From a bacterium (lineage in GTDB: Bacteria; SAR324; JACQKK01): 64,000 bases of DNA. The stretch spans positions 96,001 to 160,000 of the forward strand of contig OZ251219.1 in NCBI GenBank assembly GCA_965240465.1, read 5' to 3'. Shown here piece after piece: positions 6,373-53,475 of this stretch (position 1 is its first letter; every line of letters starts with the position of its first letter). The notes beneath the pieces were generated by a model, which saw nothing but the letters and a program-made list of their open reading frames with translations, made no database searches and was not told where the DNA came from. The position numbers were made by a program, and so were the translations under genes.

Positions 6373-7608
6373 ATGCGTCAACGAGATTTAGTTGTAGCAG
6401 GATTAGATATAGGCACAACAAAGGTGTGTGCGTTGGCGGCAGAGGTGACCGTAGCAGGGGATTTGCGTGCGATAGGTTTTGGGCAGGTTCCCTCCGATGG
6501 GATGCGTAAGGGAGTGGTGGTAAATATAGAAAAAGCGGTGGGGGCAGTGCGTGGTGCAGTAACAGAATGTGGGCGTATGTGTGGCTCACCATTAAAGAGT
6601 GTTTATGTAGGCATAGCAGGTCAGCATGTTCAAGGAACAAATGAGCACGGCATGGTAGCAGTACAAAATGGCACAATTTCAGAAGATGATATTCGTAGAA
6701 CTATAGAGTCAGCACAAGCTATCAGCATTCCATCGGACCGAGAAGTTTTGCATATTCTGCCTCGGGATTTTATTGTAGATGACCAAGATGGAGTTCAAAG
6801 TCCATTGGGAATGTCAGGGATACGCTTGGAAGTGGATGTACATATTGTCACATGCGCGGCTACCAGCGGGCAAAATATTGTGAAGTGCTGTAACTCAGCC
6901 GGTTTAGAGGTAGCTGACATTGCATTGGAGCCCCTGGCTAGTGCGGGTGCAGTATTGAGTAAGGATGAAAAGGAATTAGGGGTGGTGTTATTAGATATCG
7001 GCGGCGGAACAACGGACATGGTAGTGTATTCAGGTGGCAACCTTGTCCACACGGCAGTCTTGGCAGTAGGGGGGAATCACATAACGCACGATGTGGCCAT
7101 TGGTTTGTGTACACCATTGCCAGAAGCAGAGCTGATTAAGCATGAACACGGGGTCGCTATGCGCAACATGGTGCCGTCTTATGACACCATACAGGTACCG
7201 TCTGTAGGAGGTAGACGGGAGCGTAATATGGACAGGCGAGTGTTGGCGATCGTAATTGAAGAGCGATTATGTGAGATTTTTGAATTGGTGGATGCAGAGA
7301 TTCGCCGAGCAGGATGTTACGGTATGATTGCCTCAGGAGTAGTTTTAACAGGGGGATGTGCACTACTAGAGGGGATTGATGATTTGGCACATAAAGTGAT
7401 GGAACTTCCTGCACGGGTAGGTTATCCACGTAGGATTAGTGGCCTAGATGATATGATTCATTCGCCCGCCTACGCCACAGTTACCGGATTGTTGCATTAT
7501 GCCCAAGGAAATGGTGATTCTCGCAAGTACCCTTTTATGATGCGTGAACCACATTTCTTTGGACGCATGACTCGTAATGTGCGGCATTGGATGGACGATT
7601 TGTTTTAG
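6373..7608 (+). CDS. ftsA: Cell division protein FtsA
   Basis: GLDIGTTKV, DIGGGTTD, GVVLTGG actin-like motifs; directly upstream of ftsZ. Confidence 0.98.
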   Translation: MRQRDLVVAGLDIGTTKVCALAAEVTVAGDLRAIGFGQVPSDGMRKGVVVNIEKAVGAVRGAVTECGRMCGSPLKSVYVGIAGQHVQGTNEHGMVAVQNGTISEDDIRRTIESAQAISIPSDREVLHILPRDFIVDDQDGVQSPLGMSGIRLEVDVHIVTCAATSGQNIVKCCNSAGLEVADIALEPLASAGAVLSKDEKELGVVLLDIGGGTTDMVVYSGGNLVHTAVLAVGGNHITHDVAIGLCTPLPEAELIKHEHGVAMRNMVPSYDTIQVPSVGGRRERNMDRRVLAIVIEERLCEIFELVDAEIRRAGCYGMIASGVVLTGGCALLEGIDDLAHKVMELPARVGYPRRISGLDDMIHSPAYATVTGLLHYAQGNGDSRKYPFMMREPHFFGRMTRNVRHWMDDLF

Positions 7609-7638
7609 TAGGTATGTTTTCCCAGTAATAACAGGAGT

Positions 7639-9012
7639 TTGAGTGATATGTCAGCAGGGATGCAGATTCAAGACATCAAAGAACATAGTGTACATGCCCC
7701 TTTGATTAAGGTGGTAGGAATTGGAGGCGGAGGTGGCAATGCCGTCAATCGCATGATGGAAGCTGGCCTTGATTCAGTTGATTTCGTAGTAGGTAACACT
7801 GATCTACAAGATCTAAATGCTTCTCATGCTCCATATAAGATACAGTTTGGTCCAAAATGTACTCGGGGGTTGGGTGCAGGTTCAAAACCGAATTTGGGTC
7901 GCGAGGCGGCGGTGGAAGATTTGAATAGCATTAAGGAATGTTTAAGAGGGGCTGATATGGTGTTCATCACTGCCGGTTTGGGGGGAGGCACGGGTTCTGG
8001 AGCGACACCGGTAGTAGCTGAAGTAGCTAGTGAGCTTAATTGTCTCACTGTATGTGTGGTGACAAAGCCATTTCGTTTTGAAGGGGCTGCTCGTTGTCGT
8101 AATGCGGAGGAAAGCATTGTCCAAATTAGAAAGCACGTGGACACTTTGATTGTAATTCCCAATGATAATCTCTTGGGTCTTTCGGGTAAAGAGACTTCTA
8201 TTTTAGAGGCTTTCAGCATGGCAGATGATGTTTTGCGGGTGGCTATCCAGGGCATTTCTGACCTTATTACAAAAGATGCCCTCATCAATTTAGATTTTGC
8301 GGATGTTCGTACTGTAATGGGTGGAATGGGGCAAGCGATTATGGGTATTGGAGTAGGAGAAGGAGAAAATAGGGCTCTGGAAGCCGCAGAAAAAGCCATC
8401 CACAGCCCCTTGCTGGATGATTGCCGCATTGATGGAGCAAAGGGAATTTTGATTAATGTCTCGGGTTCCGCCAGTCTAGGCATACTGGAAGCAAATGAAG
8501 CAGTGAGCTACATCACCGAATTAGCAGATAAAGATGCCAATGTGATTTTTGGGGCCAACATTAAGCCTGATATGCCTGAAGAGAAACTGGAAGTGACCGT
8601 AATTGCCACAGGATTTGATAGTACCAAAGATCAGAAAACGGGAACTGCTGAAGCGGGGCCTGTTTATTATCTAGGGACAGATAAAAACAGCAGATCGGAA
8701 AGATTAGAAAATGTGGAAGATCATCATTCTCACCTGGGCGAATTGAAGTCTGTGCCAGACAGCTTAGCTGAAGAGCATTTGGCCTTCGTTGACAAGGAGA
8801 ATGTCAGTGAAATTCTTGAAGCGGATAAAGATGCTACGGCAAGTGTGTCTGATATTGCTTGCCAAGCAGAGGATAAAGGTGCCGCTGAAGCTCCACTGGA
8901 AACTGAGCCCAGCATTCCTTCTAGTTATCAAAACGATGACAACCAAAACTTGTATGCAAATAATCTGGATGTTCCTGCTTTTATCCGCCGTCGCAACCAC
9001 CGTGTACGGTAG
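7639..9012 (+). CDS. ftsZ: Cell division protein FtsZ with long acidic linker
   Basis: GGGGGNAVNRM, GGGTGSG tubulin signature, INLDFAD, C-terminal LDVPAFIRR peptide. The start may be the ATG at 7648. Confidence 0.99.
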   Translation: MSDMSAGMQIQDIKEHSVHAPLIKVVGIGGGGGNAVNRMMEAGLDSVDFVVGNTDLQDLNASHAPYKIQFGPKCTRGLGAGSKPNLGREAAVEDLNSIKECLRGADMVFITAGLGGGTGSGATPVVAEVASELNCLTVCVVTKPFRFEGAARCRNAEESIVQIRKHVDTLIVIPNDNLLGLSGKETSILEAFSMADDVLRVAIQGISDLITKDALINLDFADVRTVMGGMGQAIMGIGVGEGENRALEAAEKAIHSPLLDDCRIDGAKGILINVSGSASLGILEANEAVSYITELADKDANVIFGANIKPDMPEEKLEVTVIATGFDSTKDQKTGTAEAGPVYYLGTDKNSRSERLENVEDHHSHLGELKSVPDSLAEEHLAFVDKENVSEILEADKDATASVSDIACQAEDKGAAEAPLETEPSIPSSYQNDDNQNLYANNLDVPAFIRRRNHRVR

Positions 9013-9162
9013 AATCAAGTTAATTAGAAAATAGCTTGATAAGCTAAAAAAGAAATGAACCAAAAAATAGTTAATAAGTATAGCAGTTTTGTAGATAGGT
9101 ATTTTGCCTAGACTAGGATATTTTTGATGAAGGTGAATGAAAACCATGTTTTCATCCGCTGA

Positions 9163-10164
9163 ATGCTAGTGAAGTATCCTGTAAATGGAAAGATAAAAAT
9201 TATGATTATGTCTTGGCACCTGCGTTTGTGTTTGAGGTTGGGGTTAAGGTTGGGCATATGGGGAATTTTGCTGAGCGTGTTTGCTGTAATGTTGTGGCAG
9301 CTGCTGTGGATATGGCTGGCAGTTCCGTTGGTAGGGGGGACGCTATTGGTTGGTTTATGGGAGGCATGGCGGTTGATGCATCAGCATGGGAGTGGTAGGT
9401 TGAAGGGGTGGGTGTATGGAGCATTTAAGGGAGCGGCAATGAGTGGGCTGGCGTTTTATGCTTCGTTTTTGATGTCGCGACCAGAGTGGTTCTGGCCTTT
9501 GCTGTTGGCATTGGTTGCTGGGAGTTGTGGAGGGTATCGAAAATATCGGCTGAGCGGGTTAAAACATTATTTGCTTAGCTGGGGTCTGGGTGTTGTAGTT
9601 GGTGGAGCGTGGGCTTGGGTATTACTGAGCTTGTTACCATGGTTGGTATTTGTATTAGGGTTGTGGAGTGTGGGATGGCTATGGTGGTGGATTTTGTTAC
9701 CCAAGCTATTAGCTCGTAGCTGGGTGCGAGTACTAAATGGACCCTTAGAGGACATGTGTTATCCGCTGCGGGGCGAGCTAATAAAGATTGGTGCGGATGC
9801 AGATAACCACGTGGTGTTGGAGAATTACGCTAGAGTTTACCCTTTTCATGGCTGTGTATCTAGTTCTAAAGGATGCTATAGGCTGATAGGTGACCAACAG
9901 AGGAGCGAAGTATTGGTTAATTATCGTCAGTTTGCACAGCATAAATTAGAGAGTGGAGATTTACTTAAGTTGGGTGACGCACTGCTTCAAGTGGGAGGCA
10001 AGCTACCAACAGAAGATTCTGTCCCGGCAAGACAGAAAAATCGGGGGAGATATGGAAGGAACAGAAGTTCCCGTTATAGAGGTAGGCACAGCAGGGGACA
10101 AGATGCTGCTAGAGAGTACGGCAGAGGACGTCGGACACAAGGGTTTAGAAGCAGTAATAAGTAA
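9163..10164 (+). CDS. Multi-pass membrane protein with C-terminal degenerate FHA-like domain and Arg-rich tail
   Basis: About six hydrophobic segments, then IKIGADADNHVVL...HG.V...VLVN......KLESGDLLKLGDALL (FHA beta-sandwich pattern). Confidence 0.65.
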   Translation: MLVKYPVNGKIKIMIMSWHLRLCLRLGLRLGIWGILLSVFAVMLWQLLWIWLAVPLVGGTLLVGLWEAWRLMHQHGSGRLKGWVYGAFKGAAMSGLAFYASFLMSRPEWFWPLLLALVAGSCGGYRKYRLSGLKHYLLSWGLGVVVGGAWAWVLLSLLPWLVFVLGLWSVGWLWWWILLPKLLARSWVRVLNGPLEDMCYPLRGELIKIGADADNHVVLENYARVYPFHGCVSSSKGCYRLIGDQQRSEVLVNYRQFAQHKLESGDLLKLGDALLQVGGKLPTEDSVPARQKNRGRYGRNRSSRYRGRHSRGQDAAREYGRGRRTQGFRSSNK

Positions 10165-10209
10165 ATTGCTGAGGTCAGTTATGACACCTTTTTTATATTA
10201 AGTTAGGTT

Positions 10210-11259
10210 TTGGTGATGAATGTTTTGTTAATAAGAATAATAAATATAGCTGCATATTTGAAGATTATTAATTGGAGGATTACAGGGATATTTGCAGTAA
10301 CAATGTTGCTCCCTAAGCAGGTGATGGCAACAGACAGTTTTAGTGCATCAATTTCAATGGAAGTAGTCATAATACTCCTATCTTTGCTGGGGCTTGTTAT
10401 ATGCTGGATATGCTTTCGGCAAGGATGGAACATAAAAAATATGCAAAGTCCTGGGTTGGAGGTTATTTCTCCTACTGAGAAGCGTCATTTTTTGTCGCTT
10501 CCGCAATTACCATGTAACTTGGAATTTATTTCCCAGCGGTTGAAATATTCGCAACTGCGTATTTCTGGGGGCTTAAATCGGGTACTGATGAAGAAGGACC
10601 CACGGGGAAATGTGATGTTGGAAGACAAAAACAATCGCAGTGTTATGTTGCACAATCGCCGTCGACTGGAACACATAAAATTGCTGATATATGATGTGCT
10701 GGATTTTGGTGAAATTACTCTAATGTATCGTGATTCCAATCTTGAAGCACATTCTAAGGAGGCATCAAGCCTGATATCAAAATTTATGGCAATGCTCAGA
10801 TCAAAGTCTACTGTGTACAAGGCTCCCAACCAATGGTCTGTCAGTAAAAAGTCTATCGCAGAGCCAACAGCTACAGGAATATCTTTTTGTCAACCGTTGA
10901 TGCCTATGCCAAAGCAAGCACCTTCGTTTATTTCTACGAGGAATCGAGAACAAGTATTCTTCATTACCAAAAATGTGGTGTTTATTGGTAGCTCTTCTAT
11001 CAACGATTTAGTATTGAAATCCCCAGATGTAGCTCTCAAGCATGCCAAACTGGAGCGTGTCAGTGACCGTTACAAGTTGGTACAACTGAGCCCTCGTGCT
11101 CACATTACCATCAACAGACGACGGGTGGAGCAAGGATATCTTAGGGCCGGAGACGAAGTGTATTTTGAAGGAACAGGCTTTATTTTTCGCTCCGAAACCA
11201 GTACTCAGGATCCAAAAGAAAAAAATACAAGTGATAAAGGCCATGTTCTAGCATCGTAG
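10210..11259 (+). CDS. Membrane-anchored protein with two FHA-like domains
   Basis: TM segment VVIILLSLLGLVICWICF; FIGSSSINDLVL....VALKHAKL...INRRRV....LRAGDEVYF; a weaker FHA-like unit ending HNRRR...LLIYDVLDFGEITLMY. Start uncertain. Confidence 0.7.
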   Translation: MVMNVLLIRIINIAAYLKIINWRITGIFAVTMLLPKQVMATDSFSASISMEVVIILLSLLGLVICWICFRQGWNIKNMQSPGLEVISPTEKRHFLSLPQLPCNLEFISQRLKYSQLRISGGLNRVLMKKDPRGNVMLEDKNNRSVMLHNRRRLEHIKLLIYDVLDFGEITLMYRDSNLEAHSKEASSLISKFMAMLRSKSTVYKAPNQWSVSKKSIAEPTATGISFCQPLMPMPKQAPSFISTRNREQVFFITKNVVFIGSSSINDLVLKSPDVALKHAKLERVSDRYKLVQLSPRAHITINRRRVEQGYLRAGDEVYFEGTGFIFRSETSTQDPKEKNTSDKGHVLAS

Positions 11260-11434: not shown

Positions 11435-11908
11435 TTATTTGCTGTCTTGCTCTTCTAAATCTTGAACACCTTCCAGTTGTTCTTCATAAAATGAGCGTCC
11501 CATGAGTCTTTCCTGTTGTTGCTGAAATTCCAAGCTATAGAGAGTGAGCGGCATCAGTAGCAACCTACGAGGATTGATAACCTCATCAGTTCCTTCACAA
11601 AGGCCATAGGTACCTTGAGCCATACGATCAAATGCTTCTTCAATATGTTGCAAGCGGCGCAAATGGCGTTGATGCATAATCAAGTTCATTTCTCTATCAC
11701 GTTCCTCAGAAGCATGGTCTAGGGCATCTCCGACCTCCTTGCCTACGTTTTCGGGAAACTCGCTGTGCAGATGATTATTTATCACCTGTTCGCTGTCAGC
11801 ACGCATCTTTTCAAGCTTGGCAATAATTTCACGTAACACATCCGCATCTAAGTGCTGGAGGTTATATACAGGGGGAGTATTGATCCTGGTGGCTTTCTGC
11901 TTGTCCAT
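11435..11908 (-). CDS. dksA: DksA/TraR family RNA polymerase-binding factor, single-Cys (zinc-independent-type)
   Basis: Coiled-coil tip DALDHA (DxxDxA); GTYGLCEGTDEVINPRRL...P.TLYSLEFQ. Confidence 0.85.
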   Translation of the reverse strand: MDKQKATRINTPPVYNLQHLDADVLREIIAKLEKMRADSEQVINNHLHSEFPENVGKEVGDALDHASEERDREMNLIMHQRHLRRLQHIEEAFDRMAQGTYGLCEGTDEVINPRRLLLMPLTLYSLEFQQQQERLMGRSFYEEQLEGVQDLEEQDSK

Positions 11909-12258
11909 ATAATCTGCTTCCTTTGCGTTAGGTAATCAAAAAATCACTGAAAAAATAAATGCTGGTAATGTATTTTTATCAATACTATCAAATCACGCTT
12001 CCAAACGGTGCCAATGTAGCCTACAGACAGGCACCATCGGTCCCAATCCACAACGGAATCCTACCATATTCTTCCTTGATAAGATAGGTCTTTATTTATA
12101 TCTGTATTAAAGATACTCCTAATCCCCCAGCTACATAGATTATTTTAGACGGCAGAGTTTCAACGCAGAAAATGCAACACCTTAAAAACATCGGTAGTCT
12201 CTAGAATCAGTATGATGAATAATAAAAATTGATGAGATGCTTTCCAAAAACCGGCAAT

Positions 12259-14364
12259 CTAACCAAAGAATACCTGAAACAACCCCTCTCCAAAACTATG
12301 AGCAAAAACCAGACTAACAATGGCCTGTAGCTTTATAAGGATATTCAAAGAAGGTCCGGAGGTATCTTTGAGTGGATCACCAACTGTATCTCCAATGACA
12401 GCAGCCGCATGAGCATCGGATCCTTTGCCACCCAAATGTCCTTGCTCAATTAATTTTTTAGCATTGTCCCACGCACCACCCGCATTAACTGATGAGGTAG
12501 CTAGTACCACCCCTGAGGCAAGGCTACCTATCAACAAACCTGCCAGAGGCTCCACTCCAAATAAAAAACCTACCGCCAGAGGAACCAGCAATACTTGGAT
12601 GGCAGGGACAATCATATTTCTTAAGGCTGATTTAGTGGCTATATCCACGCAACGGCGGTAGTTGGGAAGAACGGTGGAAGTTTCTTCTTCTTCCCCATCA
12701 TCATCTTCTTCTGTTGATACATTTTTAAGACCAGGGATGGTAGCAAACTGGCGGCGTGATTCGTTAATAAGTTCTTTGGCAGTACGTCCTACAGCTCTGA
12801 GCATCATGGAAGTAAAGGAGAATGGTAGCATGGCACCGATCACCAGCAGGGAAATGACGCTTGGTTTTAGAATATCAAGGGTATCAATACCTGAGCGTAC
12901 CAAGAAGGCAAATATCAGTGCTAAAGAAGTCAGTGCGGCAGATCCGATGGCAAATCCTTTACCTACCGCGGCAGTGGTATTACCCGCGGCATCAAGGGCA
13001 TCGGTGCGGCGGCGTACGACACTGTCCATGCTCGCCATTTGAGCAATGCCTCCAGCATTATCCGCAACGGGACCAAAAGCATCAATGGTGAGGGTCATGA
13101 TAATTGCCCCCAGCATGCCGATAGCCGACAGTGCTATTCCGTACATTCCTGCCGCAGAAAAACCTATGAAAACTGTGATACCCAACAGGATCACGGGAAT
13201 TACGCTACTACGATGACCGAGTGCCATACCAATCACGATGTTTGTAGCGGCACCAGTACGGGAAGCAGAAGCTATTTCACGAACCGGACGTTTGTGGGAG
13301 GAGGTGTAAAATTCAGTTACGATGCCAATCAGCAAACCTGATAACAATCCGCTTAGCACCGATAAATAAACTCCCATTCGTGAGATATTTTTCACCCCTA
13401 TGACAAATTCTTCTGGCAAAGAAAAAAGAGTTACTATCAAAGTCACAAAGGCCATCAAGACAGTTGAGGCAAACAAAGAGAATTTCAAGGCAGATTCTGC
13501 TCTGCGTGCTGTGTTAGCACGTACAAAAAAAGCAACTACCAAGGCCACGGGCACCCCAAAAGCAGTGAGAGTAATGGGGTAAAGCAGTGCTAATTCGGTA
13601 GAAAAAATGGTAGCTCCAATTACTAAGGCAGCACAGGTGCTCTCTGTGATAGAACCAAATAAATCGGCACCCATGCCAGCTACATCACCTACGTTATCAC
13701 CCACATTATCTGCAATTACAGCGGGATTGCGAGGATCATCTTCAGGGATGTTCTGTTCAATTTTGCCTACTAAATCGGCACTCATATCGGCAGCTTTGGT
13801 AAAAATCCCTCCGCCTACACGGGCAAACAACGCTATGCTGGAGCCTCCTAAAGCAAATCCTGCTATAGCTTCCATCAAGTGCCTAGTATCTTTGATGAAT
13901 GGTTTATATAAAAGGTACATGATTATCAGGCCCAGCAGGGCAATGCCCACCAGACCAAAACCCATTACTGCACCAGATTGGAATGCTCTACGAAAAGCTA
14001 ATCTCAGCGAACGCCTAGCAGCAACAGCAGTCCGAATATTGCCCTCGGTAGCAGCTCGCATACCCAACCATCCCGCCCCAATAGAGCAAAATGCCCCTAC
14101 AGCAAATGAAAATGCAGAGCCAAAATCTACCACCAGAAACACTAGTAAGCCAAACCCTATGATAAATACCAGCATGTGACGAAATTCTCGTTTTAGAAAT
14201 GCTTGTGATCCTAAAGAAATGGCTCCAGAAATTTGAACCATTCGTTCTGCCTGAGATTTGGGGATGCCTTTGGTTGGATCTTGCTTTATGACCTGCCTCA
14301 GAAAAACAAAGGCCGTCAGCAGTGACAATAATCCCAAGATAACAATAGTTGTTTCAACAGACAT
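12259..14364 (-). CDS. hppA: Membrane-integral ion-translocating pyrophosphatase (K+-dependent type)
   Basis: [61 protein letters not shown]. Confidence 0.97.
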
Positions 14365-14605
14365 GGAGTTTCCTTTTGGTTAGTAAGATAATAATAAAAA
14401 TCGCTGGACAAAAATACTCATATTTTGAAAATATTAAAAAGCCGTAGATATAGCCAGCTACGAGAATCATGCCATGAAAAATTATACGGCTTATGCGGAA
14501 AAAATAAAAACATTTTTTGAAAATCAACTTAACTTGGATATTATATGGGCAATAGTGTTTAGTGTCTAGTTTCTTTTTCGGTGACTTTCTAATATTTAGT
14601 GAGTA

Positions 14606-15370
14606 TTGGGTATGAAAATTGATTTATCAAAGTGTGTGGTTATGTGGCAGCAGGTAAAGTTGAAACTTATAGTATTGGTTAACATGGGAGTACTTTACCT
14701 ATTGGCAGTGACAATAGCAGGGACGATAGGGACTACAGGATGCTCTACAGCACGGAAACGGTATAAGGCAAATACTGTACGCAGTTTGTTGAAGTATCGT
14801 GATAATGAGACAGCTAGGTTATTTAAGCGTACTCATCGGAGTGGAAATTTGTACATTAATTTTCGTCCTGCTCTAGAATTAGATGCGGTTTTTATGGATA
14901 GACGACTACGTGAGGTGACTGTAAAGCGTTATGTGGATAATTTTTTGTTGTCTAAGAAGCAGAGTGACGTGTTGCATGCAGAACAAGTAAAGGCCTTTGA
15001 TAATATCATTGAGATGTTGGTGTTTGTGTACGAAGGAAACAACAAGCGTAGTAATCTGACCAATGATGATTCTCCATGGCGAATTCTTCTGAGAGATGAT
15101 GACGGACGACTGCACCCTCCCACGGAGATAAAGCAGTTGAAAAAAAATAGTTCACAATATCAGTTACTAGAGAAAAATTTTACGGTTTTAGACCGTTGGA
15201 CGCAGGTGTACCAAATAACATTTACCAAGTTGGCAAAGGGTGTTTTGAGCCAGCAATTGGGAGATCAGCCATTTGAGCTGATATTTACAGGCATCAAAGG
15301 CTCAGTAACGTTGAGTTGGAAAGATCTGTCCTTATTCTATCGTCTGGATGGTTCTAACTCTAAAACTTAA
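14606..15370 (+). CDS. Hypothetical lipoprotein
   Basis: Hydrophobic stretch followed by lipobox-like TTG-C; a likely start is the ATG at 14684. Confidence 0.6.
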   Translation: MGMKIDLSKCVVMWQQVKLKLIVLVNMGVLYLLAVTIAGTIGTTGCSTARKRYKANTVRSLLKYRDNETARLFKRTHRSGNLYINFRPALELDAVFMDRRLREVTVKRYVDNFLLSKKQSDVLHAEQVKAFDNIIEMLVFVYEGNNKRSNLTNDDSPWRILLRDDDGRLHPPTEIKQLKKNSSQYQLLEKNFTVLDRWTQVYQITFTKLAKGVLSQQLGDQPFELIFTGIKGSVTLSWKDLSLFYRLDGSNSKT

Positions 15371-15453
15371 ACAGATGGACAATTGGAGAAAAATTACACA
15401 TCAATTTCTCGCGTGTGCTATGCTTCGTTGGTTAAGTAGAAAATTAAATTTTC

Positions 15454-15481
15454 TTGTATTTTTTCTTGTATATTGTATAAA
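15454..15481 (+). promoter_or_regulatory. Candidate sigma70 promoter for cfpA-like gene
   Basis: TTGTAT-N16-TATAAA preceded by an AT-rich tract, about 175 bp upstream of the ATG. Confidence 0.3.
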
Positions 15482-15657
15482 AGCGTAGTACCGAGTACAG
15501 ACACTCAAGGAGTACAGATTGGTTTTCGTGTTTCTTGAGGCTATTTTTTAATGTTGTTTTTATTTGTAGGTTTTTTTGTTATCATGTAGCCTAATGGCAT
15601 GAAGCAGATGTCTGCAATATGCGTGTTCAGCAAGATTCCGTTTTGGAGTAAATAATT

Positions 15658-17508
15658 ATGGTTCGAGATACTATTACCCGTGGTCCCAATCTCATACATC
15701 CTGAGAAACCCAGTGCTGTTGGCTCGCGCAACAGTCTTAATCGGGATAATCGCAATGAATATGAGGAATCTAAGCTCCTTATTGATGAAGAAGTGGACAA
15801 GACACTCAACCACATCCACGCCAAACTTCCACCTGAGGTTTTGGAAAAATTGGACATCATGGGTAGCATCAAGTCCAAGTTACACAATTACTTCAACCAG
15901 AACTTCCAGAATATGTACAACCGCTATCTCACCACCATGGAGGATGAGCTTTCCAAAAAAGTTCGTGATTTGGTAGATAAGGAGGAATATCGTTCCCTCA
16001 ACCGTTATACTCCACGAGAAATTTCAGAAATTCTAGACAAAATAGGCGGCTTGGAGAAATTCAACACCGGTGAAATGGAAAAGTCCGTTGTCAATATTTA
16101 TGGTCACCTTCAAGGACACATCCAGCGCGGCATGTATGAACTGGAAAATGAAACTAATGCCTTGTTGCGACAAAAATCAGATGTGGGTGCTTTCGTCCGT
16201 GGTGAAAATGCTTATGCCATCGCCAAGTGTTCTTTCAAGAACAATTTCTACAGGCCGAAAAATGTGATGGATGTGAAACTGGCTATCAACATTCTGGATT
16301 CAGAGCTGATTAGCCCTATTTACCACTATCAAATTCCTACTGAAACCATCATCAAGGATGTCATTAGCAAGCACGTCCATGAACTAATTGAACGCGAAGT
16401 GGAAGAGCTCAACACTACCCTCATAGATGAAGGGAAAGAGGAACTTACCACCACCGAGTCCATGTTTGAAAAAATAAAGGCTCTTGACAATTACCTGGAT
16501 GATGACACAGAAAATGAGCAGTCTAAGCGGTACCAGTTTGTCGCTAAGCGTTTCATGGATCGTATTGAAGGCCTGCAGGCTGAGGTAGATCCTGACGATT
16601 ATGATCCTCTTAATGTACGTGAAAGTATTCAGGGTGTAATCGATAACGAGAACATTCGTAACCGAGGGTTCAATACCGCTATTAATAACCTCACTGCCGT
16701 TTTGGACACATCTCGCATGGGTTACCAACACGTAGAAAACTTCAAAAATGCCCGTCAGGCTGTTGTTCGTGAGTACGAAGATACTGATGTTACCAATCTT
16801 CCTGATGAGCGCTACGCTGTTCGCCTTTCATACTATGATGCTGAGCAAGTACGTTCCATGCGTAATGCGTACGATGTCCAAATGCAAGAGATGCAAGCCG
16901 AGATTGTTAAAGTCTATGATGTGGTAAATATTCTATATGAAGACTACAAAGGTCGCACAGGCAAAAGAGACTACGATGATATCGCTCGCCATTATGCAGA
17001 GAAAAATAAAAAGACTGGCGGAATTTTAAGGTGGTTCTCTACTGAGCTGGAAGAAGAAGAGGTTACTCCTAAGCTATGGAATGAAATAACTTTCGTTCCA
17101 CCAAAAAGTACCATCGTTGAGGAAAGTAATCGCACTGATGTCCATCTGATTGAAGAACTCAGAAAGCGTATCTTTGAAAGTCGTAAGAAAGTGGCAGGTA
17201 TATTTGGTAATCACTATCCTGCTGATCGTAATATTGTTGATACCCGTATCAGCTTTATGGAAAGCCAGTTCGAAGAGTTTGAGTCTAGGGTGAACCCTTA
17301 TCACATCCTTCCTGGTCTGGTACTGGAAATTGATATTACCTCAGTTAAGAGAAAACGCACTACCATGCTATCCATGGCTAATGTACTTAATGAGTTCCTT
17401 TATTCAGTCTCTAAAGGTTTCCAAGATACCGCTTTTGCTGAATTCTCCCGCAGACGCTCTACTGTTCGTGAGGATATTGCTCAGACCTTTGATAGAAGTA
17501 CAGAGTAA
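15658..17508 (+). CDS. cfpA: Cytoplasmic filament protein CfpA homologue
   Basis: Blocks recalled from Treponema CfpA: HPEKPSAVGSRNSL, NYFNQNFQNMYNRY, KFNTGEMEKSVVNIYGHLQGHIQRG, LLRQKSDVGAFVRGENAY, NRGFNTA, MANVLNEFL, FSRRRST. Confidence 0.88.
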   Translation: MVRDTITRGPNLIHPEKPSAVGSRNSLNRDNRNEYEESKLLIDEEVDKTLNHIHAKLPPEVLEKLDIMGSIKSKLHNYFNQNFQNMYNRYLTTMEDELSKKVRDLVDKEEYRSLNRYTPREISEILDKIGGLEKFNTGEMEKSVVNIYGHLQGHIQRGMYELENETNALLRQKSDVGAFVRGENAYAIAKCSFKNNFYRPKNVMDVKLAINILDSELISPIYHYQIPTETIIKDVISKHVHELIEREVEELNTTLIDEGKEELTTTESMFEKIKALDNYLDDDTENEQSKRYQFVAKRFMDRIEGLQAEVDPDDYDPLNVRESIQGVIDNENIRNRGFNTAINNLTAVLDTSRMGYQHVENFKNARQAVVREYEDTDVTNLPDERYAVRLSYYDAEQVRSMRNAYDVQMQEMQAEIVKVYDVVNILYEDYKGRTGKRDYDDIARHYAEKNKKTGGILRWFSTELEEEEVTPKLWNEITFVPPKSTIVEESNRTDVHLIEELRKRIFESRKKVAGIFGNHYPADRNIVDTRISFMESQFEEFESRVNPYHILPGLVLEIDITSVKRKRTTMLSMANVLNEFLYSVSKGFQDTAFAEFSRRRSTVREDIAQTFDRSTE

Positions 17509-17534
17509 TCGAATTTCTTACATTATCTCAATAC

Positions 17535-17573
17535 AAAAATCCCGCCTTCTTAAACAGAAGGCGGGATTTTTTT
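17535..17573 (+). terminator. Rho-independent terminator after cfpA, probably bidirectional (also for gnd)
   Basis: Perfect inverted repeat AAAAATCCCGCCTTCT-taaac-AGAAGGCGGGATTTTT with a T-run on both strands. Confidence 0.9.
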
Positions 17574-17681
17574 GGTGTCGCATCATTCCAGTGATAAAAT
17601 ATATATACGGGAAGGGCATCAGAAACACTGCCGCATTACGTCAGCAAATTTTCATTAAATTTTCATTTGCATAGTGGGTAA

Positions 17682-19112
17682 CTAATTATTCCATTTAGTA
17701 TGAAAATTCCCAGTTTTATCTAATCTTTGGTAAGTATGAGCACCAAATAAGTCGCGCTGGGCTTGGATGATGTAAGCCGGAAGACGTTTGGCATGCAGAG
17801 CGTCGTAGTAGGAGAGTGCAGAAAATATGGCCGCCAGTGGGTTACCTTTTTGTAGGGCAACCGCAACAAAATTACGCCAAGGGGGTTGCCTTTTTTTAAC
17901 TTCTTTGTAGAAATAAGCATCCATCAGCAAATTTTCCAGTTGCGGTTGTTGAGAAAAAGCATGCTGAATACTATCCAGAAGTCGTGCTCGGATAATGCAA
18001 CCTGCCGTCCAAATACCTGCAATCTTTGATAGAGGAAGTTTCCACCCAAATTCCTTAGAGGCCATGTGCAATAATGACATTCCCTGAGCATAACAGCATA
18101 CTTTAGAACAAAATAGGGCTTCTTGGGCTTGCTTAATAAGAGTGTCATCGGTAATGACATCGGTCTCGTCAGCTGTTTTTCTTACAGTTTTTGCATTAAG
18201 TAACTGGGAGGCTCTTTGTCTCAGATCAAATTGAGCACTCATCAAACGTGAATCTACCGCCGCAGCAATGGTGGGAACACATGCTCCTCTGGCAAGAGCA
18301 TCCTTCACCGTCCAGATGCCTGTACCTTTCATAGGTGCAATGTCCTTTATCATTTCTACTAGCAGGCGATCCTTATCACAATTGTCTGGTTGACGTAGCA
18401 CTCGCGCTGTGATTTCAACCAAAAATGATTCCAATTGGCCTTTATTCCAATCTTCAAATGTATCAGCCAACCGAGCGGGGCCTTGCGTGTCAATTAACAC
18501 ATCGCAAATTTCTGCAATTAACTGCATATCCGCATATTCAATGCCATTATGAACCATTTTTACATAATGCCCGGCTCCACCAGGCCCCATGTATTCTACA
18601 CAAGCACCATGGCTTCCCACAGCTGCAATGCATTCTAGTAACGGTGCCAATTCTTGATACGCGGTTTTGTCTCCGCCTGGCATCAGGCTAGGGCCTTTGA
18701 GAGCTCCTTCTTCACCTCCGCTCACCCCACACCCAATAAAGCGCAATCCCTTGGATATCATTCTTTGTTCACGGTTGTTGGTATCTACATAAAAAGAATT
18801 TCCACATTCTATAATCACATCATCCTTATCCAGACGTTGGCTGAGATCTTCTAACACTGCTTCAGTAGCTTGACCTGCAGGCACCAAAACAAAAATTTTC
18901 CGCGGTCTACTAAGCTTCTTCAGTAGACTATTGTAATCTTTGGCAGTATCCAAAAGGTTGTTGCTGTTAGCATAGCGGTGAGCAAATGAGTCCACCGTAG
19001 CAACAGAACGAGAAATTCCTACCCCTGATATTCCATTGTTGGCAAAGTTACGAAGTAAATTCGCACCCATTACCCCCAAACCAACCATCCCTATTTGATA
19101 TGGCTCACTCAT
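17682..19112 (-). CDS. gnd: 6-phosphogluconate dehydrogenase, decarboxylating (NADP-type)
   Basis: GLGVMG, GVSGGEEGA, GHYVKMVHNGIEY, IQAQRD.FGAHTY. True start is ATG 19112; the longer track ORF runs through the tRNA. Confidence 0.97.
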   Translation of the reverse strand: MSEPYQIGMVGLGVMGANLLRNFANNGISGVGISRSVATVDSFAHRYANSNNLLDTAKDYNSLLKKLSRPRKIFVLVPAGQATEAVLEDLSQRLDKDDVIIECGNSFYVDTNNREQRMISKGLRFIGCGVSGGEEGALKGPSLMPGGDKTAYQELAPLLECIAAVGSHGACVEYMGPGGAGHYVKMVHNGIEYADMQLIAEICDVLIDTQGPARLADTFEDWNKGQLESFLVEITARVLRQPDNCDKDRLLVEMIKDIAPMKGTGIWTVKDALARGACVPTIAAAVDSRLMSAQFDLRQRASQLLNAKTVRKTADETDVITDDTLIKQAQEALFCSKVCCYAQGMSLLHMASKEFGWKLPLSKIAGIWTAGCIIRARLLDSIQHAFSQQPQLENLLMDAYFYKEVKKRQPPWRNFVAVALQKGNPLAAIFSALSYYDALHAKRLPAYIIQAQRDLFGAHTYQRLDKTGNFHTKWNN

Positions 19113-19169
19113 GTTTTCAGTGTCATTTGTTGATTTTTTAGGAACAGTTCTTGAGTTCAAGGACAAAAA

Positions 19170-19253
19170 TGCCGAGGGCGGGGGTCGAACCCGCACTCTC
19201 GTGAGAGAACTGGATTTTGAGCCCAGCGCGTCTGCCAGTTTCGCCACCTCGGC
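19170..19253 (-). tRNA. tRNA-Leu(CAA), CCA not encoded
   Basis: GCCGAGG acceptor, anticodon arm CTGGG-CTCAAAA-TCCAG, long variable arm, GGTTCGAC T-loop. Confidence 0.95.
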
Positions 19254-19255
19254 CT

Positions 19256-19900
19256 TTAAGCAACACGAGCTTTAGGCTTGGTAAGGGTAGAGGTGTGCTT
19301 ATCTGTTGTCAAGCTTGAGAGTGGCTTTCTAAAAAATAGATTGTCAAAGCCATGACGCCCCAGGGTGTCTAGGACAGCTACTGCGGTTTTGATAGAGTCT
19401 CGGTTGACCAAAGGCACGCTTAAATGAGCTTGTTGATATTGGGGCTGACGTTCTTCAAACAAGCAGGTGATATAATCCCGCCATTCTTCATTGGTCTGTT
19501 GTTTGTTGTTAATCAGGGGACGGTGGCTGTTGCGTTTTAAGCGAGTAAAAAGGGTGTTGAGGTCTGCTTCCAAATATACGACTGTTCCTGCTTTCCGCAG
19601 TATCTCCATTCCGCATGGGTTGATGGGCATGCCACCACCAGTAGCTACCACATGTTTTTCAAGATACAGAAAACGATTCATCATTTTAAGTTCTATTTTA
19701 CGGAAAAATGCTTCTCCATGAGTAAGGAATATATCGGCTATGGACATGTTGAGGGTGTCCTCGATCAGTTGGTCTGTGTCTATAAAGTGATATTTAAGCT
19801 GGCGGGATATATATTTTCCCACAGTGCTTTTCCCTGAAGTCATAAATCCAGTTATCAAGATATTACTGGATTTCGTATTAATGTAGCTCAACTGTGTCAT
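19256..19900 (-). CDS. aroK: Shikimate kinase
   Basis: GFMTSGKSTVG Walker A, DTD, GEAFFR, ATGGG, RPL. Confidence 0.93.
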   Translation of the reverse strand: MTQLSYINTKSSNILITGFMTSGKSTVGKYISRQLKYHFIDTDQLIEDTLNMSIADIFLTHGEAFFRKIELKMMNRFLYLEKHVVATGGGMPINPCGMEILRKAGTVVYLEADLNTLFTRLKRNSHRPLINNKQQTNEEWRDYITCLFEERQPQYQQAHLSVPLVNRDSIKTAVAVLDTLGRHGFDNLFFRKPLSSLTTDKHTSTLTKPKARVA

Positions 19901-21096
19901 GGTGCACTATGTAGCATCGAAGATTGTGAGTGTCTGGGATGAGTATTTTTATTGCTTAGTAATGGTGGATGCCCGGTGGTTTGGTAAGGAGACTCAATCC
20001 ATCCGCCCCCCAGCAAGTGATGGCGATCATAGAATACTACTGCTTGTCCTGGAGTGATAGCCCTGACTGGATCATGGAAGCGTACTTTTACTCGGCTGTG
20101 AGGTTGAGGAATAACAAGTGCTGGTTGCGGTTTGTGAGAATAACGTACCTTGGCTTCCACGGTAAAAGGATATCTAGGAGGTTCACAAGAAACCCAATTT
20201 ACTCGTTTAACGGATAAGCTTTTTGAGAACAAGGCTTCTTCTGCTCCCAGTACTACTTCTTGGGTATGTGGTTTAATATCTACCACAAACATGGGACCGT
20301 TGCTATTTATTCCCAGGTGCCGTCTTTGTCCGATAGTGAAATAGGCAATGCCAGGGTGCATGCCAAGGAATGACCCTTCCATGTCCACAAGAGCACCAGG
20401 CATGCTGGGGAGCGATTCTTTTTTGAGGAAACTACGATAATCTTTTGAGATGAAACATATTTCTTGGCTTTCAGGCTTGTCCCATGTTTTAATTTTAAGG
20501 CGGTGAGCGATGTCTCTTACCGTGGACTTACTAATTTCTGCCAGGGGGAAGAGCAGCCAAGGTAGCTCTTTCCTTAGGGTAGTGAAGAGGAAATAAGTTT
20601 GGTCCTTATGGGTATCGTAGGGACGAGAGAGTTTCCAACCGCTGGATATATGTTCCAGACGGGCATAATGCCCAGTAGCCAGGTAAGAACATCCGAATTG
20701 ACGAGCCTGAGATAATAGCAACCCGTGTTTGATGGAGTCATTGCACATCACGCAAGGATTGGGAGTCAACCCATGTTGATAATCACTAATAAAATTATCA
20801 ATTACTTGCTCACGGAAAGATTTTATATGGTTAACAACATAAAATGGGATTCCCAGCTGGGAACAGACTCTGCGAGCATCCAGGGAGTCATCCACAGAAC
20901 AGCATTTTTTGTTGCTCTTTTCAGATTCTGGAATGTCGTGCAATTTCATGTGAATGCCGATTACATCCCAGCCTTGTTCCACCAACAAGGCTGCCGCCAC
21001 CGAAGAATCCACTCCTCCACTCATGGCTACCGCCACACGTCCTGAGGATTTATCAATATCGGTAGCAGGAGAAACAACCATGGTTTTCAGTAACAC
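19897..21096 (-). CDS. mnmA: tRNA 2-thiouridylase MnmA
   Basis: AMSGGVDSS, TPNPCVMCN, ATGHYA, KDQTYFL, ESQEICF, TPGQ. Confidence 0.97.
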   Translation of the reverse strand: MLLKTMVVSPATDIDKSSGRVAVAMSGGVDSSVAAALLVEQGWDVIGIHMKLHDIPESEKSNKKCCSVDDSLDARRVCSQLGIPFYVVNHIKSFREQVIDNFISDYQHGLTPNPCVMCNDSIKHGLLLSQARQFGCSYLATGHYARLEHISSGWKLSRPYDTHKDQTYFLFTTLRKELPWLLFPLAEISKSTVRDIAHRLKIKTWDKPESQEICFISKDYRSFLKKESLPSMPGALVDMEGSFLGMHPGIAYFTIGQRRHLGINSNGPMFVVDIKPHTQEVVLGAEEALFSKSLSVKRVNWVSCEPPRYPFTVEAKVRYSHKPQPALVIPQPHSRVKVRFHDPVRAITPGQAVVFYDRHHLLGGGWIESPYQTTGHPPLLSNKNTHPRHSQSSMLHSAP

Positions 21097-35386: not shown

Positions 35387-37342
35387 TTATTTTGGAAAAG
35401 GACGAAGCATACGGTGGTTCTCTAGTCTGATGGTGAGGTGTTGGGAATCAAAGTATTCTAACAGATCAACGGCATGTTTGCGGCTGATATTAGCTAGTGA
35501 TTTGAACTCAATCACTGTAATGCTCTGGTTTTTATCTAGGTAATTACACAGAGTGAAGGTAAGTCGTTGGATTGTCTGGGGAAGATAGTATAGATCAGGC
35601 TTGATACGAATTAGTTGTTTAGTTTTTGTGGCTGTAGCGAGGAGATTGGCGGTGTACGAAGAAGACAGATTAGTAATTTTAAGCAGGGAATTTAACCGAG
35701 GAGGTTGTATAGCGGAACGAATGGTATCTATTAGGCGTTCTAAGTCTTGTTTTTTTTGGGGAGAAATGGCCACTTGGTGTTGGAGTAATTGAAAATGGTC
35801 TTGGTACTGGGTTATTTCACCTTGGGTTACCATATATTCCAGCAGGACTTGCGTACCTGATGTCCCAAATGAGGGAGGCATTTTTCCCGCTATTTCTACC
35901 GCTTTCATACCATTTTTTTCTGGATGTTGACGGTGAAAACAAAACAGGATTTTTTTTAAGTACTCACCATTTTGTTTTTGTGCTTGGGTATGTAACCAGC
36001 CAGTGTCTTTAGGAAGATCAAAAGTAAGCATACTTTGAGATGCAAGTTTTACTCTCAATTTTGGGAGGTCTTTTGGTAGGATGGCCGTGCGCGGGTTGAT
36101 TTGGCTTTGTAGTAACAGTCCATGGGGCCTGATCAAGGCAGCCGCAGTTATTTTTTCAGCAATTGATGCTTGATGTAGCCGTTGCAAACATTCAGCAATC
36201 GGTACACCCCTAATGGCAGAATCCCCGTGGCTTTTTAAGGCATCTGGTTCAATTACCACCCCGCCACCGATGGTACATAAGGGCGAGTAAGAACGGAGTA
36301 CAAAACGGTCAAGAAATTTTGTGCTAAGAGATTTTTCCAATCTTAGTTGGATATATTGCGTCTGGCCTGGCTTCCATGAAGCTGTTTCTAAAGGAATAAC
36401 GCGTGCCATTACCTCATTGGCATAAAGATGCATTCGCAGTCGTGACCGTTGACTCAGAGTCTGAGGGGCTGTTTTCGATAGTTTTGCTTGGGCATTTATC
36501 AAGCTACCTGTCAACAAACATCCCCTGGCAGCCAGTTGGTTTCCCCGATGAATATCTTGATGAGAAAATCCTACTACGTTGATGGCTGCTCTTTGTCCTG
36601 TTCTGACTACGTCTACCTCTTTGCCATGAACCTCCATTTTCCTCACTCGTACTGCTTGATGATGCGGATACAACCAAGCTGTCTCCTTAAGAGTAAAATC
36701 CCCGGATAACACAGTTCCTGTTATCACTGTGCCAAATCCTTTCATGTGGAAGCTACGGTCAATCACCATGCGAAAAGGTTGCTGGGCATCAAGGATACGA
36801 TTGTGTTGAAAATTATTAGTCAACAAATCCCGTAGTTTATCCAATCCATTTCCGCTTTTGATGCTTATCGCCTGCAGAGGAGCATTCTCTAAAAATGTGC
36901 CTGCAAAAGCTTTCTTTACCTCATTCTCTCGGTCTTTCAGTGCATTATCTGAAACCAAATCTGCCCGAGATAACACTACTATCCCTTTAGAAATTCCCAG
37001 CAATTCACAGATGTTTAAGTGCTCTATTGTTTGAGGCATAACCCCTTCATCTGCGGCTACTACCATCAAAACTGCATCAATGCCTGCCACGCCAGCCAGC
37101 ATGGTGTGGATGAACCCCTCGTGGCCTGGAACATCCACAAACGCTAATGGCTGACCGTTGCTACTAAGGCCATGGGTAAAACCCAATTCAATGGTCATAC
37201 CACGCCGTTTTTCTTCTTTCAGTCGGTCTGGGTCCATACCAGTGAGAGCCATCACCAACGAGCTTTTCCCGTGATTTACATGACCACCGGTGCCAAACAC
37301 CAAATGGGTAGTTTGTTTTGCACTAGCAATATACTGTGCCAT
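35387..37342 (-). CDS. selB: Selenocysteine-specific elongation factor
   Basis: [32 protein letters not shown]-terminal winged helix SRKHAV.LLEYFD. Confidence 0.96.
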
Positions 37343-37359: not shown

Positions 37360-37698
37360 CTATATTTTTCTAGCAGAAACCAAACGACAATAACCCTGCA
37401 AACGCCCCCCTTCTTCTATACACAAACGACTGGTAACAATATCGCCATTTAGCACACCAGCAGACAGTACATGGGTTTCCTCGGTGGTTATAACATCACC
37501 CTTTATACACCCATTCAATACCAAACTATGGGCTTTCACAGAGCCTTTCACTTGGCTGTGTTGACCTATGCGAAGCAAATCTTCCACATGTAGGCTACCC
37601 TTTAAATTTCCATTAAGGTGAAGATTACCCTTTAAACGTAGATTCCCCTTAATATCTACACTGGTGGAAATAATACTGGTGGTAGGATAGAAAGCCAT
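37360..37698 (-). CDS. Bactofilin (polymer-forming cytoskeletal protein)
   Basis: Beta-helix repeats IKGNL..LHLNG.LKGSL..LRIG..SQVKGSV...LNGCIKGDV...LNGDI...LCIEEGGRLQG.C. Confidence 0.9.
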   Translation of the reverse strand: MAFYPTTSIISTSVDIKGNLRLKGNLHLNGNLKGSLHVEDLLRIGQHSQVKGSVKAHSLVLNGCIKGDVITTEETHVLSAGVLNGDIVTSRLCIEEGGRLQGYCRLVSARKI

Positions 37699-37738
37699 AC
37701 TAAGAAACTATGTGAAAAACGGAAAATAGTAGAAATTT

Positions 37739-52940: not shown

Positions 52941-53426
52941 TTACTTGTCAACATTGTCTTTACTAGCATTGTCTTTGCTAGCATTGACTTTGCCAGTTTT
53001 ATCCTTGCCTGCTGAGGCTTTTGCCGACTGTTTGTCTTTTGGGTGTTCTATGTTGCTGAAGGGGTCCTTGGGACTATCCACCAATACCGATATAGCCATA
53101 GAAGCAGAATCGCCACGACGAACTCCAGTAGGCAACACACGGCTGTAACCGCCAGCACGAGATTTATAACGCAACGCCAATTCTCCAAATAAGATTGCTG
53201 GAGCTTTTTTGCCTTTTACAAAACGCATCGCATGGCGACGAGCATTTAAATCTCCCCGCTTGCCTAGGGTGATCATCTTATCCACATAGCGACGCATTTC
53301 CTTAGCACGTGCCAAGGTAGTTTCAATTTTTTCATGTACCAACAAACTGGTAACTAGGTTGCGTAACATCGCTCTGCGATGTGATGGGTTCACCCCTAAG
53401 CTCTTTCCTTTTGCTAGATGTCGCAT
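52941..53426 (-). CDS. rplQ: 50S ribosomal protein L17 with low-complexity C-terminal tail
   Basis: MRH...HRRAMLRNL, TTLARAKE, R.GGYSR, RRGD. Confidence 0.98.
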   Translation of the reverse strand: MRHLAKGKSLGVNPSHRRAMLRNLVTSLLVHEKIETTLARAKEMRRYVDKMITLGKRGDLNARRHAMRFVKGKKAPAILFGELALRYKSRAGGYSRVLPTGVRRGDSASMAISVLVDSPKDPFSNIEHPKDKQSAKASAGKDKTGKVNASKDNASKDNVDK

Positions 53427-53475
53427 GGCGAATCTCCCTCTGCATCAAATAATGAATTGAAAGCAGTGATTGTTT

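Follow-up and report, generated by a model that had tools for sequence, protein, structure and literature searches.

A CfpA cytoskeleton family member in the SAR324 phylum, one of three paralogues, two of which flank a gene cassette shared with spirochaetes

Two published accounts (PMC3296230, PMC2776988) describe treponemal CfpA as forming cytoplasmic filaments, a ribbon under the inner membrane, whose loss leads to division and nucleoid defects, and in both the protein is stated to be exclusive to spirochaetes and is grouped with the intermediate-filament-like proteins. Here, we analyze a 64,000-nucleotide stretch of a SAR324 genome (contig OZ251219.1 of assembly GCA_965240465.1, positions 96,001 to 160,000, forward strand; hereafter, the window) that carries a gene, cfpA1, whose product we identify from its sequence as a true, full-length member of the CfpA family at orthologue level. 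To our knowledge, CfpA is among the least understood bacterial cytoskeletal proteins, without a solved structure or known partners, and work on it has been limited to treponemes, organisms that are difficult to handle. The explanation that best accounts for our results as a whole, and that we consider probable, is that CfpA1 is a SAR324 member of this family, one of three paralogues in a genome that shares a cfpA-linked gene cassette with spirochaetes, and part of a putative filament system. The gene lies as follows.

15658 to 17508, plus strand: cfpA1, ATG start, 616 amino acids; the stand-alone and most conserved of the host genome's three CfpA paralogues

CfpA1 (72 kDa, isoelectric point (pI) 5.24) scores 877.5 bits against the NCBIfam equivalog model NF040882 (cfpA_ASD; cut-off 500, E = 5.7e-264), with residues 6-611 aligned to model positions 2-603 of 605, while none of 14 named control genomes contains a match to the model. 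Spirochaete-named CfpA proteins are 54-59% identical to CfpA1 in alignments running from residue 1 or 6 to residues 611-616. An earlier model-made reading of the letters alone (the sequence-only reading) had recognized an acidic, helical, 616-residue open reading frame (ORF) with conserved blocks matching treponemal CfpA; the ORF is as described, with approximately 58% helix in an AlphaFold2 model, and the full-length alignments confirm the family assignment. Treponemal CfpA (T. pallidum TP0748, 678 amino acids, and the T. denticola and T. phagedenis proteins) belongs to the same family as CfpA1 over the whole core. The two differ in that CfpA1 is encoded alone and has a C-terminus shorter by approximately 45-60 residues (616 amino acids compared with 647-713 for the spirochaete ORFs as called), and in that its host lies in another phylum, lacks the flagellar switch gene FliG and has three paralogues.

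Database searches recover a family that is narrow and already partly named. A word-index search with CfpA1 scored 7999 candidates, of which 2895 proteins reach E ≤ 0.001, and an all-against-all profile search finds just 212 clusters (50% identity) among 1.84 billion representatives, which is why we regard the family as narrow. All 120 relatives listed carry the precomputed Pfam family PF27473, which is absent from the Pfam copy used for our direct scan of CfpA1; that scan assigned no family (best DUF5872, E = 0.043, below its threshold). Relatives at 71-76% identity come from metagenome-assembled genomes (MAGs) named SAR324 cluster bacterium, Candidatus Lambdaproteobacteria and Deltaproteobacteria, and the name "cytoplasmic filament protein CfpA" is borne by relatives in MAGs of SAR324, Deltaproteobacteria and Spirochaetia, the NCBI pipeline having already labeled many SAR324-type homologues CfpA. 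Some CfpA proteins of SAR324, Lambdaproteobacteria and Proteobacteria are publicly named "cytochrome C oxidase subunit II", which looks like an annotation error because three such proteins carry PF27473 and are 60-75% identical to CfpA1.

We also searched for related loci in one genome per GTDB species, using an alignment of eight sequences as the query. The search confirmed 527 stretches, and the best 80 of them fall into two tiers, with 15 loci at 58-87% identity (titled SAR324 in five cases, Lambdaproteobacteria in one, Deltaproteobacteria in two and simply "bacterium" in seven) and 65 at 54-59%, comprising 62 spirochaete-named loci, two titled "bacterium" and one titled "Candidatus Paceibacterota"; CfpA may occur in a third phylum beyond these 80.

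The host genome is a single closed contig of 1,599,138 bases, and its core proteins place it away from the spirochaetes. The window's GyrA shares 62-63% identity with its counterparts in SAR324 cluster and Candidatus Lambdaproteobacteria MAGs versus 47% with those of two spirochaete genomes, MetK is 64% identical to SAR324-named MAGs versus 58-59% to spirochaetes, and the FtsZ core is 69% identical versus 52-53%, so that all three side with SAR324-named MAGs and not with Spirochaetota. The host phylum (88 species genomes, one class) is distinct from the phylum of the spirochaete genomes. We refer to its families as f1 to f7, where the window's genome belongs to f1 and f2 is a second family of the same order; several MAGs with SAR324-type names have locus sequences identical to those of f1 genomes, and the submitters' labels therefore hold for f1. 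The sequence-only reading had called the surrounding genes deltaproteobacterial; they are indeed non-spirochaete core genes, but the label is outdated, as the lineage is now the separate phylum SAR324. With the host in that phylum, CfpA is found outside Spirochaetota and its published range is too narrow.

The cfpA1 locus is no assembly artefact. GC content is level across it, and a 22.9-kb contig from a public sequencing run covers positions 11500-20000 with 0 differences, while a 21.6-kb contig from a second run covers 11500-17538 and breaks only in the spacer past the cfpA1 terminator, where minor variants occur; both runs derive from one sample, probably the source of the assembly, so this contig support is not independent, and no RNA run is listed among those containing the locus. 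The neighborhood is also kept within the family: of 11 other f1 loci, 10 have an H+-pyrophosphatase (PPase) gene next to cfpA1 and 8 have, 5' of it, a homologue of the lipoprotein gene listed below, the order PPase - lipoprotein - cfpA recurring. None of the outcomes that the sequence-only reading had named as refuting it, namely the lack of a significant full-length CfpA alignment, placement of the host within Spirochaetota or a chimeric assembly, was observed.

14606 to 15370, plus strand: conserved lipoprotein gene directly 5' of cfpA1; 254 amino acids as listed, although the true start may be an internal Met

This protein has no Pfam or NCBIfam family and is labeled "putative lipoprotein", without a Pfam family, in a protein atlas. 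Its signal peptide contains a lipobox Cys, which is shared by all 10 homologues with an N-terminus inside the locus, and homologues also adjoin the stand-alone copy of cfpA in a genome each of f4 and f7.

CfpA is widespread in the SAR324 phylum, where it scores above cut-off in 41 of the 88 species genomes. By family, it is present in 18/18 genomes of f1 in addition to the window's genome, 0/45 of f2, 2/2 of f3, 1/1 of f4, 0/1 of f5, 1/1 of f6 and 18/19 of f7. Thirty of the 41 positive genomes have three matches, two have two, and nine have four or five; the four matches in the window's genome and in its congener reflect one gene hit in two pieces around an acidic insert, and the extra matches in the other genomes are pieces at contig ends. 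Presence in most families, with three matches in most positives, indicates that the system is old and vertically kept in the phylum. In an even sample of 251 Spirochaetota genomes, 90 have CfpA, 84 of these with one match, and among the six with several matches three have a gene split over two contigs, two have a small second piece and one (G097) is real. Multiple copies are thus the rule in SAR324 and the exception in spirochaetes. In genome G097 (34-35% GC), three contigs each carry a full-length CfpA gene of the spirochaete type, and behind one of these genes lie the two others of the cassette described below; paralogy therefore also arose or persisted inside the spirochaete phylum.

Three CfpA loci score above cut-off in the host genome, encoding CfpA1 (616 amino acids), CfpA2 (607) and CfpA3 (645, with an acidic insert). 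CfpA2 is 44% and CfpA3 48% identical to CfpA1, and their genes lie together, on one strand, approximately 232 kb past the window's end.

Host contig 392317-400077 (outside the window), minus strand: second CfpA locus, in the order cfpA2 - X (ORFs of 177 and 109 amino acids) - PPDK-like gene (867 amino acids; similar to pyruvate, phosphate dikinase, PPDK) - cfpA3

This order is found in 13/13 f1 cluster loci fetched and in 3/3 loci of f3 and f6, and its first three genes, cfpA - X - PPDK-like, are the arrangement behind cfpA in spirochaetes too. In the 54-59% tier, at least 58 of 65 loci contain a full-length X homologue, directly 3' of cfpA in those checked, and the PPDK-like gene lies 1.4-3.5 kb downstream of cfpA in 5/5 further spirochaete genomes; across the related loci there are 66 distinct PPDK-like ORFs longer than 780 amino acids. 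In T. pallidum, according to PMC3373638, TP0746 (pyruvate, phosphate dikinase, 901 amino acids) and TP0748 (CfpA, 678 amino acids) are on the same strand, two locus tags apart. The spirochaete system and the host genome thus have the same cassette of cfpA, an HPr-like gene and a PPDK-like gene. The cassette does not lie at cfpA1, which is followed by a terminator and a convergent gene, but at cfpA2 and cfpA3. The single locus titled Candidatus Paceibacterota bacterium (L071, a 6.9-kb contig) carries the cassette with a spirochaete-type cfpA; to judge from the tree, in which its PPDK-like gene neighbors that of a spirochaete MAG, the contig is probably mis-binned. Beyond the host's second CfpA locus lie genes resembling those of a type II secretion system (T2SS), encoding a protein with a T2SS-M domain and two others that are GspF-like and MltG-like.

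Protein X has zero Pfam or NCBIfam matches, HPr (PF00381) included, and its predicted structure (predicted local distance difference test (pLDDT) score 87.5) suggests two HPr-like domains behind a helical head. Residues 69-162 superpose on HPr with Z 8.0-9.3 and a root-mean-square deviation of 1.8-2.3 Å over 79-81 residues, and residues 236-326 more weakly (Z 6.7). A His-containing motif of six residues at a helix start of the second domain is invariant in 71 sequences, and the His is roughly at the position of His15 of HPr, as judged from alignment ranges only; no His occupies the corresponding position in the first domain. Both the window's genome and its congener encode X as intact ORFs of 177 and 109 amino acids, divided at a low-complexity linker and each holding one conserved domain. 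The two domains are thus naturally separated here, and the C-terminal piece of one genome shares 86% identity with that of the other.

The PPDK-like neighbor carries three PPDK domains and, by sequence, is a separate PPDK paralogue rather than the canonical enzyme. On the curated model TIGR01828 (cut-off 843), cfpA-linked PPDK-like proteins score 402-695 bits, and the one between cfpA2 and cfpA3 of the host scores 402.6-404.5 bits against the exact cut-off of 843.45. The phospho-histidine motif is kept in 11/11 aligned cfpA-linked sequences, whereas in f1 the motifs around the catalytic Cys and the metal/phosphoenolpyruvate (PEP) site are lost, and 43-54% of canonical-invariant residues are kept in the PEP/pyruvate domain of f1 proteins versus 77-81% in spirochaetes. 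Most genomes with the PPDK-like gene have a canonical PPDK elsewhere. A second, closer PPDK homologue of the host (contig 1245384-1247978) scores 749.6 bits, also below cut-off. The 1.1-Mb spirochaete genome G194 has only the cfpA-linked, divergent PPDK-like gene (608.5 bits; locus at 810752-816533 of its contig C1) and no canonical PPDK, so that its sole "ppdK" belongs to the filament-linked clade. The pair recalls HPr and the Enzyme I/PPDK-type enzymes of the phosphotransferase system (PTS) in the two HPr-like domains of X and the retained phospho-histidine motif; it departs from them in that X has no family match and no His in its first domain, and in that the PPDK-like protein is below the TIGR01828 cut-off and has lost motifs in f1, and phosphotransfer is a prediction. 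Complex prediction for CfpA2 and X of one f1 genome gave a score of 0.00 in both runs, below the mark, in a trial made without controls.

Phylogenetic trees bear on when the two phyla came to share this system. We built CfpA trees from 88 rows under a mixture model and from 97 rows under LG+G4, the latter without long-branched divergent representatives (11 of the 88). Spirochaete CfpA forms one clade in both (support 84 and 99, respectively), SAR324 CfpA forms five or six well-supported clades that track genomic context, each f1 paralogue clade has support 100 in the 97-row tree, and SAR324 copies are nested in no spirochaete subclade. Holding the stand-alone copies with a lipoprotein neighbor (f1, f4, f7) as one clade is not rejected by the approximately unbiased (AU) test (log-likelihood difference 5.3, p-AU 0.365), for a group chosen from synteny after the tree was seen. 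In a tree of PPDK-like proteins rooted on five canonical PPDKs, the linked clade has support 100 and within it SAR324 (16 rows, support 99) and Spirochaetota (18 rows, support 86) are reciprocally monophyletic, with no nesting. This clean split implies that the sharing is ancient and due neither to contamination nor to recent transfer. The cross-phylum identity of CfpA1 (54-59%) is above that of FtsZ and GyrA and close to that of MetK (58-59%), and thus does not by itself call for a recent transfer. We infer from the sequences that the sharing goes back either to common descent with many losses or to an early transfer of the cassette in either direction.

The SAR324 protein is under very strong constraint. 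When 16 proteins of the host and its congener are compared, CfpA1 shows the highest identity (86.5%), followed by the second HPr-like domain of X (86%), CfpA3 (77%), CfpA2 (73%) and, lowest of those named, the PPDK-like protein (63%); the products of four genes neighboring cfpA1 reach 67-74% (PPase 74%, DksA 71%, Gnd 69%, lipoprotein 67%). Within f1, CfpA1 is 75% identical versus 62-63% for GyrA, 64% for MetK and 69% for FtsZ. All three CfpA genes are kept in closed genomes of 1.6-1.7 Mb, and the host genus appears to be genome-reduced (2.3-5.2 Mb in the rest of the family) and non-flagellated.

In treponemes, the CfpA ribbon is positioned beneath the periplasmic flagella, a placement that might suggest flagellar coupling; the SAR324 census is contrary to it. 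FliG is present in 78 of the 88 genomes of the phylum. Four genomes in which it was not found, namely two of f3 and the single-contig genomes of the host and its congener, each keep three CfpA genes, and f2 shows the opposite combination, with FliG in 41/45 genomes and CfpA in none. The CfpA system is therefore not coupled to flagella, and a flagellar link, considered as a candidate, was rejected on this census. FliG is present in 17/18 other f1 genomes.

The AlphaFold2 model of CfpA1 (pLDDT 72, predicted template modeling (TM) score 0.58) is an alpha+beta fold with approximately 58% helix and 8% strand, comprising at least 18 helices and six strands at residues 187-213, 358-393 and 553-563, with the first 22 residues disordered, and it suggests that the N- and C-terminal halves may be interwoven. 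Many positions of this disordered N-terminus are invariant in the eight-sequence cross-phylum alignment. A Foldseek search with the model gave 0 matches at E ≤ 0.001 (top rows PaxB/XaxB and CorA, TM ≤ 0.17), VIA-align against 48,161 chains gave a best Z of 7.9, within the chance range, and led to no fold assignment, and a PDB sequence search gave 0 hits at E ≤ 1. CfpA1 resembles crescentin, FilP and Ccrp in being acidic, largely helical and predicted to be cytoplasmic, with nucleotide-free self-assembly assumed; it differs from them in that no sequence relation was found and the model is not a continuous coiled-coil rod, and for this reason the intermediate-filament-like grouping would appear to rest on analogy. 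The model consists of broken helices and a small sheet, and as a monomer it cannot show a rod formed on assembly.

The cfpA1 gene appears to be a monocistronic unit, as suggested by the convergent gnd gene, the terminator and the 287-bp gap upstream.

15371 to 15657, plus strand: AT-rich region of 287 bp 5' of cfpA1, holding the Shine-Dalgarno sequence (from reading the sequence)
15645 to 15648, plus strand: Shine-Dalgarno sequence GGAG, 9 nucleotides before the cfpA1 ATG
17535 to 17573, plus strand: intrinsic terminator of cfpA1 with a 16-bp stem, 5-nucleotide loop and U7; hairpin 17535-17571, U run to 17573
17682 to 19247, minus strand: gnd, the next gene after cfpA1, convergent

Both the GGAG block and a T-rich block 5' of cfpA1 are kept in the congeneric genome. 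A sigma-70 scan of the upstream region gave 0 sites versus 6.1 expected, and Rfam has zero matches across 14300-17800. The terminator hairpin begins 26 bases past the stop codon and was overlooked by a simple terminator scan; folding against 200 shuffles showed it to be as strong as the sequence-only reading had stated (-25.8 kcal/mol, z = -6.4, with 0/200 shuffles folding equally well). In the spacer that follows (17540-17710), the contigs of one public run break, and short contigs with single-base differences and 1-nucleotide indels suggest strain-level heterogeneity. The same reading had claimed conspicuous use of the C-ending codons AAC, TTC, ATC and ACC and, from it, high expression. Compared with 803 long ORFs of the same genome, C-ending codons are enriched for Phe, His and Tyr (TTC 0.65 versus 0.31, CAC 0.71 versus 0.38, TAC 0.45 versus 0.35); AAC (0.36 versus 0.35) and ATC (0.33 versus 0.33) are not enriched and ACC barely differs (0.47 versus 0.42), so that of the four codons named only TTC is clear. 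With GAC depleted (0.21 versus 0.31), third-position C at the 66th percentile and GC3 (GC at third positions) at the 35th, the codons do not clearly point to high expression.

In the mechanism that we propose, CfpA1 would self-assemble into cytoplasmic filaments, as treponemal CfpA does, and would be the main structural subunit, with CfpA2 and CfpA3 co-assembling or modulating. Since the host genome has no flagellar switch gene, the filament may serve division, nucleoid organization or cell shape and not motility. The HPr-like and PPDK-like pair might act as a phosphotransfer or docking module and thereby couple the filament to metabolic state, and both phyla may hold the system through an ancient event, by common descent or cassette transfer, that predated the radiation of the sampled lineages. 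Taken together in its boldest form, namely a three-subunit, flagella-independent CfpA cytoskeleton controlled or docked by a PTS-like pair that links carbon and energy state to division or the nucleoid, and descended from an ancient cassette of both phyla, this mechanism is speculative and, in its entirety, unlikely. If it were true, the spirochaete filament ribbon would be a specialized form of a wider and older cytoskeleton and not a spirochaete invention.

Several results weigh against this picture. That SAR324 CfpA1 forms a filament cytoskeleton is an analogy drawn from genes and predicted structure, the model being only moderately confident, alpha+beta instead of a continuous coiled-coil rod, and without a solved relative, and the roles assigned to the three paralogues are guesses. 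The absence of CfpA from all 45 f2 genomes shows that the system is dispensable in some SAR324. The CfpA tree, having no outgroup, fixes neither the order of duplication nor the direction of transfer, and the eroded motifs of the f1 PPDK-like protein make the phosphotransfer idea weaker for the host genome. At the gene itself, no sigma-70-like promoter was detected upstream, so that a promoter of its own is an assumption, and the codon profile gives no clear sign of high expression.

A somewhat unlikely alternative is that the three paralogues build separate homopolymers with separate tasks and no mixed filament, CfpA1 acting with the lipoprotein gene and CfpA2 and CfpA3 with the cassette. Such a partition would fit the genomic contexts, as the lipoprotein gene accompanies a stand-alone copy in f1, f4 and f7 and the cassette lies between two copies in f1, f3 and f6, and would also fit the low identity of the paralogues to CfpA1 (only 44-48%), the full support of each f1 clade and the AU result for the stand-alone copies (p-AU 0.365). 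Their co-retention (30 of 41 positive genomes have exactly three matches) would be expected just as much of obligate partners, however, and the lipoprotein is exported, which makes direct contact with a cytoplasmic filament unlikely.

We regard as quite improbable that SAR324 CfpA is instead a non-filamentous scaffold or regulator of the PTS-like module, for example one sequestering or positioning a central carbon enzyme. Two phyla conserve the cassette, the second of the two HPr-like domains of X has an invariant His, all 11 aligned linked PPDK-like sequences keep the phospho-histidine motif, and the CfpA model, with its small sheet and no solved relative, is not a rod like that of an intermediate filament; each of these would suit such a role. 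Set against them, CfpA1 matches at equivalog level and over its full length a family whose treponemal members are the filament subunit, it is conserved above housekeeping enzymes, as is common for polymer-forming proteins, and it is unlinked to the cassette, whose PPDK-like gene is decaying in f1 while the CfpA genes are not. That the locus is non-native, consisting of spirochaete DNA brought in by mis-assembly, mis-binning or recent transfer into one lineage, is extremely improbable: the identity of CfpA1 to spirochaete proteins (54-59%, above GyrA at 47% and near MetK at 58-59%) and the probable mis-binning of L071, which shows that this happens to such loci, are outweighed by one closed contig of level GC, the 22.9-kb contig with 0 differences (though its run is probably the source sample), neighbors kept in f1 (PPase 10/11, lipoprotein 8/11), CfpA in 41 of 88 phylum genomes, 30 of them with exactly three matches, and SAR324 copies placed outside every spirochaete subclade.

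The reading that we prefer, a SAR324 CfpA within a conserved multi-copy system, means that the CfpA cytoskeleton family is not confined to spirochaetes and that a second phylum keeps the protein under very strong constraint. The function of CfpA cannot be bound up with periplasmic flagella or the cell architecture of spirochaetes, the residues and neighbors conserved across both phyla point to functionally important parts, and the HPr-like and PPDK-like pair offers a concrete candidate for regulation or anchoring. Annotation is also corrected, both for the "cytochrome C oxidase subunit II" names and for the cfpA-linked "PPDK", which is not standard by the curated model. The naming of these SAR324-type proteins as CfpA by NCBI is already known; new here are the phylum-wide triple paralogy, the cassette across two phyla, the rooted evidence for ancient sharing, the independence from flagella and the decay of the f1 PPDK-like gene. 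A search of the literature, which was not exhaustive, found no paper mentioning CfpA in SAR324 and nothing on cell morphology from cultured or imaged SAR324, and the main text of an overview of the phylum (PMC9031357) does not contain cfpA, filament or cytoskelet-, although its supplements may list the gene.

Elsewhere in the window, the sequence-only reading had pointed to FtsA/FtsZ, a ParB-linked bactofilin and FHA-like membrane proteins, all of which are found, at 6373-11259 and 37360-38608.

6373 to 9012, plus strand: ftsA and ftsZ (gene annotation of the window)
9163 to 10164, plus strand: membrane-protein-like ORF of 333 amino acids, with a weak YscD/FHA-like match below the gathering score
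10210 to 11259, plus strand: membrane-protein-like FHA-domain protein of 349 amino acids (FHA, 37.8 bits)
35387 to 37342, minus strand: selB, just downstream of the bactofilin gene
37360 to 37698, minus strand: bactofilin of 112 amino acids (PF04519, 82.7 bits)
37739 to 38608, minus strand: ParB/Noc-like gene, with the bactofilin gene directly downstream

Ribosomal-protein genes for L6, L5, L16, S3 and L22 (914-5748, minus strand) end right before the divergent ftsA, and a second ribosomal block with L17, rpoA and S4 lies 47 kb away at 52941-55168 (minus strand). The usual long ribosomal-protein cluster thus seems to be broken up in this small genome.

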